A stretch of 33,042 nt of DNA, from the NCBI GenBank assembly GCA_001275005.1, contig JWZX01003272.1:1-33042 (forward strand), given 5' to 3'. The stretch is from Chrysochromulina tobinii. Lineage: Eukaryota. Position 1 is the stretch's first letter, and every line of letters begins with the position of its first letter. Made by a program: the position numbers and the translations under genes. Below are positions 5,564-10,252 of this stretch, piece after piece. The notes under the pieces are model-generated. The model worked only from the letters and a program-made list of their open reading frames with translations, had not been told where the DNA came from and did no database searches.

Positions 5564-8500
5564 ATGCTTCAATCTTCGTGGCGCCGCTCCGCGCCTCGAC
5601 TTGCGCACGCCATCTTCTTCGCCCTGATGGTGAGCGCCACCGATGCGCAGTGCACGGAGACGTGCAACTACGCCTCCGATGGATACTGCAACGATGGCGG
5701 CCCAGGCGCGGTGTTTGCTGATTGCACGATTGGCACCGACTGCGCTGACTGCGGCCCTCGAGGGGCGTCGCCGTCGGGGACGAGCTGGTCGATTGTTTCG
5801 GGTGGATCGTATTGCGAGGTCACATCCAATGGGTTGTGCATCACCGATGGCAGCGAATCGTATAACGACAACGAGGCATGCACGATGCGAGCGGAAGTGA
5901 CAATGAATATCACCGCCATCGAGTTCAACACCGAGAGCTGCTGCGATTATCTCACGATTGGGGGCAACACATTCTCCGGCACCCAAGGGCCAACGAATGT
6001 GCAAGTGACCGCCGGAACAACTGTGACCTGGTACAGCGACAGCTCGGTCACGGGTCCAGGCTTTGTGATCTGTATGCTCATACCACCACCAGCACGACCA
6101 CCAGCACCACCGTCGCCACCAGCACCGCCGATGCCACCGCCAGCACCGCCAGCATCGCCGCCGCCACCGCCATCAGCGCCGCCGCCGGGATCACCACCGT
6201 ATCCACCGGCACCACCGCCTTCACAACCGAGCCTCTGCTCGAATAATTATGGCAGCGGGTCGGAAGGCTGTTGGTACATCAACGACGGCCACTGCGACGA
6301 TGGCGGGCCAGGGGCTGAATTCGGCGACTGCGACTTGGGCACAGACTGCTACGATTGTGGGATCCGCCTCTTGGAGTCCCCTCCGTCGCCCACATATCCA
6401 CCGCTCTCGCCGTTGCCAGGCGGAGCGCTCATCATGGGAGGCGTGCCCGTCGTGCGCGTCGCCTTCTCCTTCCCCCCGCGGAATGTGACTCAGGAGGAAG
6501 TGGTCGAGTTCACGCGTACGGTGGTCGACGTTGCGCTCTGCACAACCCACCCAGTACGCTGCCAAGTATCTCGTGAGCTGACATCAACCAGCCCTGGATT
6601 CGTAGACAATCTAGGTCGGGAGTTTTCACAAGTGCTCGCGAGCACTATGACCTTTCGGCTCGCATTCCCCGAGTCCAACTTTAACGGCTCCGCTGGCTCG
6701 GTCGCCCCCGCCGCAGCGGGAGCGGCGCGCGCCAATGCGGTGCGCACGCTCTTCGCGTCTACGCCACTCACCGCGCCGGCGTATTCGGCAGACCGCAGCA
6801 TCACTTTCGCCCTTTTGCTTGCCGGTGACGTCGCCGCGTTCACTGAGAGCGTGAATGGCGAGATTGCCGCCGCGATCGCGACCGCGGCGAGTATGAACGT
6901 GTCTGCCTGCACCGAGACGTGCGAGTGGGCCTCCGATGGCGATTGCGACGACGGCGGTCTGGGCACGGAGTACTCATCCTGCGCCATCGGCACCGACTGC
7001 ACCGACTGCGGCATGCGCCAGCAAGTGGTTCTGAATGTTACGTCGTGCAGCGTCGTGACCTGTGGCACGGCCACCGGCGTCATCGTTGCCGTGCGTATCC
7101 GGACGCCCACAGAGACGGCAACCACGGTGCAGTCGAGGATCACCAGCGCCATTAGCAGCCCGAGCCTCGCAACCCTCATGCTCGCCAACGTCACCGGCGT
7201 ACGCCGTGCCCGACGTCTCTCGGCTACCGTGATCGCGGTCCTGGCAGCACCGACCGTGATAGGCGGGAACTCCTTGCTCGGCGCATTCGGCGTCACCAGC
7301 CGACCCGACGCAACAATCACCTCCGCAGCTTTGCCGTACTACAAGCCACCCTCGCCCCCGCCTGCGCCTCCGCCTCCCGCAGCGCCACCGGGCCTGTGCT
7401 CGAACACGTGCGACGCCTCTGGCGTAGGGGGCACCCCGGGTGTGTGCAATGACGGCGCCTCCCCTGACCCGTTTCCTTTTAGGCAGCTCTGCCCGTTCGG
7501 CAGCGACTGCACTGACTGCGGCTCACGTGACTTTTGTCTCACCTGCTCGCTCGAGTGTCAGAGGCGCAACAATGCGCTGACCGAAACGAAGCGCGGCGAT
7601 GGGTGCATGGCCTCCATGTATGGTGACACAATCTGCGACCCCAATTGCAACAACCGCGAGTGTGGCTACGACGCCGGCGCATGCACACTGAGCCAGATCC
7701 GGTCCGTGTGCATGGCCGAGCAGGATCTTGGTCGCACGGACTACAGTACGAAGCCGCAGGCGCTCGGGACCCTCGTTGGTGTGAGTGATGGCTCCTTCCG
7801 GCTACTCCTGCAAGAAAATAACTCGCATACCTCGAGCGCCTCAATGCTCGCCATGGGCCGCGTGCCGGTCGCGATCTCGCTCAACCTCTCGCCCATCCGC
7901 CTGGTGCTGCAGCAAGACTTCAACGAAAACTACATCTTCGCCGAGATGAGGTACACGCTGCAGTGGGCCGACCCACGCCTCGCTCGCTCACCGTGTGCGG
8001 GCGCACTTTCGGGGATGCTCTCGCTCGACTTTGAGCAGGGCCTGAGCGACATCGCGCGCGAGGCGGCGCGCGCGATGCGCTCCAAGTTTTGGGTGCCCTC
8101 GTTAATGCAGGTATTCGCCGTCCCTGGCTACCGTGGCATCGATGCATCCGCCGATTTCCATCTAGGTACGGAGACGATTCTTATAGATGGTGCGCCAGGA
8201 TCGAGAGATGAAGGGCTAAGGGTCCCTATGCCAGTGCAGCCTTGGCTCGAAGGCTATGGGAGCAGCCTGCCGGCGCCCGCACCATCAGCAACGCTCTCGG
8301 GCGTCCTCCCGATCGCCAACCAGTTCACGTTGGGGCCACGCAACACGTCGGCATGTGTCGGTTGCGCCTCCTGGACGGGCGACATCGAGTTCCAGCTGCT
8401 CCAGTCGCACCACGTCTTCTTCTTCTATCCCTTTGACCAGCAGGAACTCACTGTGACCATAGAAGTGGCTGGGGCCTGGCTGTACGGCTGCGTGGGCACG

Positions 8501-10252: not shown

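Follow-up and report, generated by a model that had tools for sequence, protein, structure and literature searches.

A Chrysochromulina tobinii Cys-less pentameric ligand-gated ion channel subunit with a predicted fifth membrane helix and an EF-hand predicted to face the cytosol

[quoted passage not shown] Beyond the four membrane helices of the superfamily (M1 to M4) lies a predicted fifth helix (M5), which leads into an EF-hand pair on the predicted cytosolic side. This five-helix plus EF-hand layout is real and family-wide; the superfamily itself is known, and one member of the family had previously been listed without being recognised for its layout. Alignments and a predicted model speak firmly for a pLGIC fold as far as M4, followed by an additional helix and the EF-hand, and for the conservation of all these parts within the family. 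Our preferred reading, to which we assign a probability of roughly 0.6, is that the protein contributes to a pentameric cation channel that would be gated from outside by some cue and modulated by cytosolic Ca2+ acting through the EF-hand, M5 and M4.

Relatives were collected by searching 1.84 billion representative sequences with residues 761-1309 (E<=0.001), giving 412 matches of which 150 were listed; the query and 77 proteins that extend over most of the stretch as far as the EF-hand make up the 78-row alignment used below. The model of residues 761-1309 built from this alignment has a mean predicted local distance difference test (pLDDT) score of 91.7 and a predicted template modelling score of 0.83, and consists of a beta-sandwich extracellular domain, the M1-M4 bundle, the additional membrane helix and the EF pair. 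Every match listed by Foldseek for the model was a pLGIC (best E=1.6e-11), with the nicotinic acetylcholine receptor (nAChR), GLIC, the GABA-A receptor, DeCLIC and the glycine receptor among them. VIA-align gave a Z of 20.6 with a root-mean-square deviation of 3.3 Å over 300 aligned residues, spanning model residues 1 to 408-416 of 549. The likeness extends over the whole subunit fold of the GABA-A, glycine and GluCl receptors, GLIC, DeCLIC and nAChR (9rpb, 3rhw, 6f0r, 7q3h, 9avu; Z about 20), at 13-18% sequence identity. The initial annotation of this DNA had assigned the extracellular and membrane region to the pLGICs, and the match of the predicted model to known structures bears it out. 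The motifs that it cited are all in place, namely WADPRL (residue 801), WVP (843) and YPFDQQEL (955; position 8426), along with those of M2 (1075), the M2-M3 loop (1099) and M4 (1144). We consider the pLGIC identity of the channel region, as read from the model, to be well supported.

The individual residues point the same way. Seven positions are the most conserved among pLGICs, and the Pro-loop follows the pattern [F/Y]PxD with an absolutely conserved proline (Jaiteh et al. 2016; PMC4795631). Five of the seven are present in the query: the aromatic residue, Pro and Asp of the Pro-loop, the beta9 Trp and the pre-M1 Arg. Pro956, Phe957 and Asp958 are found in 76/76 rows with a residue there and Arg1041 in 77/77, while the beta9 position (Trp1007) holds Trp in 64/78 rows and Tyr or Phe in 12/78. 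Within M2, Arg1077 at 0' is invariant (78/78) and Leu1086 at 9' is kept in 66/78. The Pro-loop was said to lack its flanking cysteines, and there is indeed no Cys between residues 935 and 975; the protein is hence not a Cys-loop receptor. Two other cysteines, Cys976 (75/76 rows) and Cys1033 (76/77), probably form a family-specific disulfide. The eukaryotic Pro-loop receptors of Jaiteh et al. (2016; PMC4795631) share with the query the Cys-less [F/Y]PxD loop, the pre-M1 Arg and a short M3-M4 loop.

What sets the protein apart begins after M4. M4 occupies model residues 378-408 and the match to known structures ends there; since the structural match to whole pLGIC subunits runs out at this point, the helix that follows is extra. 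In the model, M4 is followed by a four-residue turn and then by a 46-residue helix that leads to the EF pair. The hydrophobic segment described earlier at 9095-9163 is present (residues 1178-1200) and has the highest hydropathy peak of the protein (2.41), and the family hydropathy profile has five segments with the fifth the strongest. The end of M4 was located with a profile of M1-M4 only across the 150 listed of the 412 matches, and the sequence beyond it was scanned. The M4 end is reached in 111/150, at least 45 further residues are available in 109, and 107 of these 109 have a hydrophobic segment past M4 (the exceptions being P0094 and P0129), as compared with 4/101 and 0/77 passing in control windows placed 45 and 130 residues further on. 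The spacing from M5 to the EF loop has a median of 38 residues (range 34-65).

Lys and Arg together average 6.45 in the stretch after M5 and 3.29 between M3 and M4, versus 0.55 between M4 and M5 and 0.67 between M2 and M3, as would be expected of an M5 that ends on the inner side. We considered an inverted topology but rejected it on the grounds of the Cys-rich N-terminal half, the placement of 9 of the 11 N-glycosylation sequons ahead of M1, and the typical extracellular modules found there. The end of the structural match at M4, the family-wide M5 and the positive-inside charge thus predict the topology put forward in the initial annotation, with five helices and an inside C-terminus, and the EF-hand likely faces the cell interior. 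The protein therefore departs from the four-helix layout whose chain ends outside, and it does so by its fifth helix. In P0021 and P0015, the M4-M5 link is lengthened by a large insert that contains two cysteines, as would suit an extracellular loop.

We find it scarcely credible that M5 does not cross the membrane (being re-entrant or peripheral), or that the tail is an artefact of gene prediction or assembly, either of which would leave an ordinary four-helix pLGIC. The topology is a prediction from hydropathy, charge and model, and the RNA contigs discussed below may include DNA, both of which leave room for such a view; yet the fifth hydropathy peak is the highest of the family profile, the charge pattern fits, and the gene itself is reproduced in independent assemblies. 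The ORF runs uninterrupted from ATG to stop, as first described. Its three nearest loci (L001-L003) share 99.99% identity with the window across 8,480 gap-free bases, one of them possibly being the window's own assembly, and two further loci (L004 and L005) are 97.4% identical. In each of the five, the frame stays open all the way from locus start through tail, and a misassembly is accordingly unlikely. P0007, a complete ORF of 59% identity from a transcriptome collection, holds ectodomain, channel, M5 and EF-hand in a single chain. RNA runs carrying the gene are of freshwater origin, as the host most likely is. In 6 RNA runs, contig X1 covers 6480-9475 unbroken at ~95% identity, X6 joins M5, the EF-hand and a distal barrel segment without the SAM-like part, as in a close paralog (see below), and X4 bridges the SAM-like and barrel segments. 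These contigs come from related strains or paralogs, may include DNA, and none spans the whole gene; their depth, low or zero on intergenic bins, was not taken as proof of RNA origin. Co-translation of the tail, which the initial annotation presupposed, is supported by the occurrence of M5 and EF-hand in one piece in both P0007 and the RNA-library contigs.

The EF-hand (residues 1231-1257; 9254-9334) reaches 27 bits (Pfam EF-hand_6 cut-off, 25) in a scan of the isolated tail; with the whole protein it reaches 22.7 bits, under the cut-off. The family profile matches the calmodulin EF-hand pair (lobe) at E about 1e-22 and, with the tail-only Pfam score, upholds the EF-hand first noted here. The second loop had been called degenerate and is so, the canonical pattern occurring in 1/78 rows. 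In loop 1, the ligand positions 1, 3, 5, 9 and 12 are filled by Asp1239, Asp1241, Ser1243, Asp1247 and Glu1250; Asp1239 is found in 77/78 rows and Glu1250 in 71/78, and the loop is canonical in 65/78, with the strict pattern failing in the other 13. An EF-hand motif is present in 90 of the 100 listed relatives with at least 100 residues after M4, and of 62 relatives scanned with Pfam, 51 have an EF-hand match at E<=0.01, in most cases under the cut-off. The ratio of non-synonymous to synonymous substitution rates (dN/dS) of the EF region versus the paralog is 0.32-0.38. The sequence thus predicts one Ca2+ site together with a structural partner loop. An EF pair that is purely structural, serving assembly, trafficking or partner binding in a true five-helix pLGIC, and always metal-filled or metal-free without reporting Ca2+, would fit a second loop that is degenerate in 77/78 rows and the 13 first loops that fail the strict pattern. 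We judge this unlikely, as positions 1, 3, 5 and 12 and Gly6 of loop 1 are conserved despite an overall family identity of about 25%, which is more than a purely structural role seems to need.

Pores of two types appear to occur in the family. The 78 cores, placed in a quick maximum-likelihood tree rooted at its midpoint, fall into groups of 57 and 21 rows (Shimodaira-Hasegawa-like approximate likelihood-ratio support 97). The 57-row clade includes the query and has Asp or Glu at -1' in 55 rows, whereas none of the 21-row clade (e.g. P0097, P0077, P0150) is acidic there and its M1-M2 link is proline-rich. The exact cation and anion pore motifs used for comparison are those of animal receptors. 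By analogy with the pore-motif principle of these receptors (PMC549065), the two clades are predicted to be cation and anion channels, respectively. Both keep M5, and the EF loop is canonical in 45/57 and 20/21. The pore also bears on whether the protein conducts at all. A non-conducting receptor, in which the pLGIC frame relays an outside signal through M5 to the cytosolic tail in the manner of adhesion-type receptors, would suit the large modular ectodomain, the variable cytosolic tails, two missing prolines and a hydrophobic 6' position (both described below). Arg 0' and Leu 9' are nevertheless kept, and on the tree the -1' residue divides into a cation-type and an anion-type state, for which selection on ion flow is the best explanation; we hold such a receptor to be highly unlikely.

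How might a Ca2+-modulated cation channel of this kind work? The subunits would assemble as a homopentamer, or as a heteropentamer with paralogs, and the LNR, Cys-rich, CUB-like and proline-rich ectodomain would act as sensor or tether. Gating from outside would proceed through the intact coupling pair formed by the Pro-loop Asp and pre-M1 Arg, with cation selectivity arising from the Asp at -1'. M5 and its basic extension would behave as one rigid helix, such that Ca2+ bound to the single canonical loop would move M5 against M4 and alter gating or desensitisation, in the simplest case as a negative feedback that follows the entry of Ca2+. The two distal segments, SAM-like and barrel, would be dispensable additions, likely for clustering or binding. 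Such Ca2+ feedback on the channel is something that we infer from the sequence. A precedent from the haptophyte lineage supports the proposal: EukCatB1 of Emiliania huxleyi is a channel with a C-terminal EF pair, and its current is lost in Ca2+-free medium (bioRxiv 10.1101/2020.04.29.068528), although it differs in having the unrelated fold of a voltage-gated channel.

Several observations weigh against this proposal. Two prolines that are typical of known members, though not absolute, are absent from the query: that of M1 (77% of known members) is present in 28/78 rows, and that of the M2-M3 loop (88%, with Gly in 3%; PMC4795631) is replaced by Gly (Gly1100) in 74/78. Position 6' of M2 is mostly Val or Ile, which could mean a tighter pore. 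Pfam gives no pLGIC domain in the query and a weak match in 1 of the 62 relatives scanned. The degenerate second EF loop means that Ca2+ affinity may be low, and M5 with its extension has a dN/dS of 0.90 versus the paralog, on few changes (2.5 synonymous, 7.5 non-synonymous). The search query contained M5 and the EF-hand, favouring matches with both, and 262 of the 412 matches were not listed, so the M5 and EF-hand counts are not unbiased frequencies. As the anion-type clade keeps the EF-hand, feedback of a channel on the Ca2+ that it admits cannot account for everything. We take the M2-M3 register to be that of the GABA-A and glycine receptors, with Gly replacing Pro. Compared with the sequences of solved structures, the channel region matched no pLGIC and gave one unrelated match (E=0.66); the corresponding profile search was filled by calmodulins in the best 60 of 990 rows and is uninformative on the channel part.

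Cytosolic Ca2+ could instead be the main gate, the family then comprising Ca2+-activated cation and anion channels built on a pLGIC frame, with the outer domain mainly as scaffold or tether. The EF loop is conserved like the pore motifs and in both pore clades, the N-terminal extensions are widely variable, and the M2-M3 proline of outside-in coupling is replaced; but the outside-in pair of Pro-loop Asp and pre-M1 Arg is invariant and the whole beta-sandwich has been kept, and we regard Ca2+ as main gate as doubtful. More broadly, and tentatively, these proteins may form a large, old and undescribed haptophyte-type branch of five-helix pentameric channels with a cytosolic Ca2+ sensor, independently split into cation and anion types and gated or co-gated by intracellular Ca2+. 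If true, they would be the first pLGICs opened from inside.

Cys-less pLGICs are known in haptophytes (PMC4795631, PMC11085791). The S1 alignment of PMC4795631 includes A0A0M0K655/22-421 from Chrysochromulina sp. CCMP291, a member of the five-helix family that is, by eye, nearly the same as P0097 across M1-M4. The entry is cut inside the fifth helix. Terminal parts were deliberately discarded by the authors, who call for a study of domain architecture. In the accessible parts of PMC4795631, the fifth helix, EF-hand, LNR and family size are undescribed and neither "EF-hand" nor "calcium" is used as a word; its S1 alignment was covered in 3 of 201 parts plus motif searches, and may hold more members. 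A C. tobinii protein in the cluster of P0097 is labelled just "EF-hand domain-containing protein". No description of a pLGIC with five helices or an EF-hand came up in a literature search of listings and abstract openings, with most subscription papers beyond reach. The Ca2+ site of DeCLIC lies outside the cell. DeCLIC also has extra N-terminal domains and Ca2+ states that have been solved, according to its structure titles. Subunits of the GABA-A, glycine and GluCl receptors, GLIC, DeCLIC and nAChR have four helices and end after M4 (PMC549065).

Two Cys-loop entries from Emiliania huxleyi, R1D0D9 and R1DUZ8, are haptophyte pLGICs whose cytosolic side bears EF-hand-like loops, as judged by eye. 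Unlike the query, both retain the Cys-loop, and their EF-like loops lie within the M3-M4 loop; these EF-like loops are undiscussed in the accessible parts of PMC4795631. Cytosolic EF-hands thus appear, by eye, to have come onto haptophyte pLGICs by a second route. The start of M3 in both entries resembles that of the five-helix family, and hydrophobic residues follow M4 at their cut end (again by eye).

In this intensively studied superfamily of drug targets, a four-helix subunit ending outside is regarded as the fixed design (PMC549065), and a conserved fifth helix with a cytosolic EF-hand would be a natural case of control from inside. Through M5, the influence of M4 and of the lipid-facing surface on gating could be tested directly. 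Our findings also bring to light a large set of channels missed by Pfam, and add a candidate Ca2+-coupled receptor family for fast haptophyte responses; a link to the haptonema is speculation.

The coordinates of the channel gene's features and of its ordinary neighbours are given in Table 1.

Table 1. Features of the channel gene and neighbouring genes in the window (aa, amino acids)
Feature	Position	Strand	Remarks
Intronless ORF	5564..10252	+	1562 aa, ATG-to-stop; predicted five-helix Cys-less pLGIC subunit
Signal peptide, probable	5564..5647	+	aa 1-28; by eye; leader of P0007 more clearly hydrophobic
Cys-rich repeat 1 of 4	5645..5767	+	no Pfam family
CUB-like segment	5777..6079	+	Pfam PF23062 E=0.00015, under cut-off; resembles three repeats in P0021
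Proline-rich stalk	6080-6229	+	follows CUB-like segment
Cys-rich repeats 2-4	6260-6367, 6905-7018, 7394-7528	+	no Pfam family
LNR (Notch) domain	7601..7684	+	aa 680-707, just before channel; PF00066 above Pfam cut-off
pLGIC extracellular beta-sandwich	7856..8686	+	aa 765-1041; Cys-less Pro-loop, Trp1007, Arg1041, Cys976, Cys1033
Cys-less Pro-loop YPFD	8426-8437	+	aa 955-958
Pre-M1 Arg1041	8684-8686	+	alignment and model
M1	8690..8764	+	aa 1043-1067; without usual proline
M2	8783..8845	+	aa 1074-1094; Gly -2', Asp -1', Arg 0', Leu 9'; cation-type signature
M3	8882..8965	+	aa 1107-1134
M4 with amphipathic start	8975..9067	+	aa 1138-1168; structural match to known pLGICs stops here
M5	9080..9217	+	hydrophobic part 9095-9163; predicted single helix into basic cytosolic extension, aa 1173-1218
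EF-hand pair	9236..9484	+	canonical first loop 9278-9313, degenerate second loop
Helical segment, weakly SAM-like	9776..9973	+	fold unconfirmed; absent from close paralog
Small beta-rich segment, weakly Tudor-like	10046..10204	+	fold unconfirmed; close relatives only
Urea transporter	13854-15506	-	ordinary neighbour
Methyltransferase	15534-16361	-	ordinary neighbour
Histone-fold protein	21753-22586	-	ordinary neighbour
GDSL-like hydrolase	24053-25510	-	ordinary neighbour
FAA hydrolase	31476-32300	-	ordinary neighbour

The first 760 residues consist of the probable signal peptide, Cys-rich repeats, CUB-like segment, proline-rich stalks and LNR. The LNR, CUB-like segment and four Cys-rich repeats of this N-terminal half were absent from the initial annotation. 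LNR matches occur in at least 26 of the 62 relatives scanned, and the N-terminal extensions vary widely among relatives. Going by the sequences, the conserved unit is the LNR, pLGIC, M5 and EF pair, and the "giant" size of the protein is therefore due to variable extensions. The four stretches of the Cys-rich repeat, of ~40 residues, are matched by RNA contigs from many other genes, and the repeat therefore seems to be a mobile extracellular module in common use. P0019 has a long and different N-terminal region (residues 1-375) without a Pfam match, which may, as an impression only, be a solute-binding-type domain.

Two labels given at the outset to the distal tail were not confirmed. The SAM-like segment matches Pfam SAM_EPH at E=0.038 (14.2 bits against a cut-off of 27), and the SH3/Tudor-like barrel matches Tudor-knot at E=0.13, far under the cut-off. 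A tail model of low confidence (pLDDT 53.9, 4-row alignment) has five helices and then three strands. Fold searches with it returned unrelated helical proteins (best E=0.38, best Z 7.6), with no SAM among the matches listed and with non-significant chromo, SH3 and Tudor rows amid many unrelated ones; single-sequence searches with the two segments gave only non-significant unrelated matches. Among the proteins compared, the SAM-like segment is found in 5 and the barrel in 8, all of them close relatives. The paralog at 85% DNA identity (L008-L013, P0004, P0005) has the barrel and lacks the SAM-like part, while P0006 and P0007 have neither; from this distribution, both segments are recent add-ons. 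Versus the paralog, dN/dS of the barrel is 0.33-0.47, and the SAM-like segment has 1 synonymous and 4 non-synonymous changes, too few for a ratio.

The closest named protein is C. tobinii Ctob_016325 (84% identity over 506 residues). Among 30 clusters looked up for the taxonomic range of the family, one bore the name of an organism, C. tobinii. Divergence among gene copies is mosaic. L004 is identical to the window from M5 to the end, and yet has a synonymous divergence (dS) of 0.15 in its N-terminal half, and dS of the paralog (L008-L013) is 0.07-0.15 in the channel and EF parts versus at least 0.34 elsewhere. This pattern in L004/L005 and L008-L013 suggests gene conversion or recombination among copies. 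The C-terminus of P0195, a close relative, turns to unrelated sequence just ahead of the EF-hand, and P0195 is probably a chimeric contig.

Among viral contigs, 35 pattern matches were obtained and 0 confirmed, a weak test given that the patterns came from the Cys-rich N-terminal part. In prokaryote genomes, a search that reaches close relatives only gave 34 matches reducing to 2 loci, L014 and L015. L014 (611-1590) duplicates the channel region at 88% identity within a 1.6-kb contig from a bacterial genome bin, and was set aside as contamination, probably algal; L015 is a weak match of 35 residues.

The gene directly downstream (10941-13049, +), which adjoins the channel gene in L001-L007, encodes a calcineurin-like phosphoesterase domain with an N-terminal EF-hand-like motif. 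Some 4 kb upstream of the channel gene, 365-1408 (+) is part of another ion-channel gene (Ion_trans matches).

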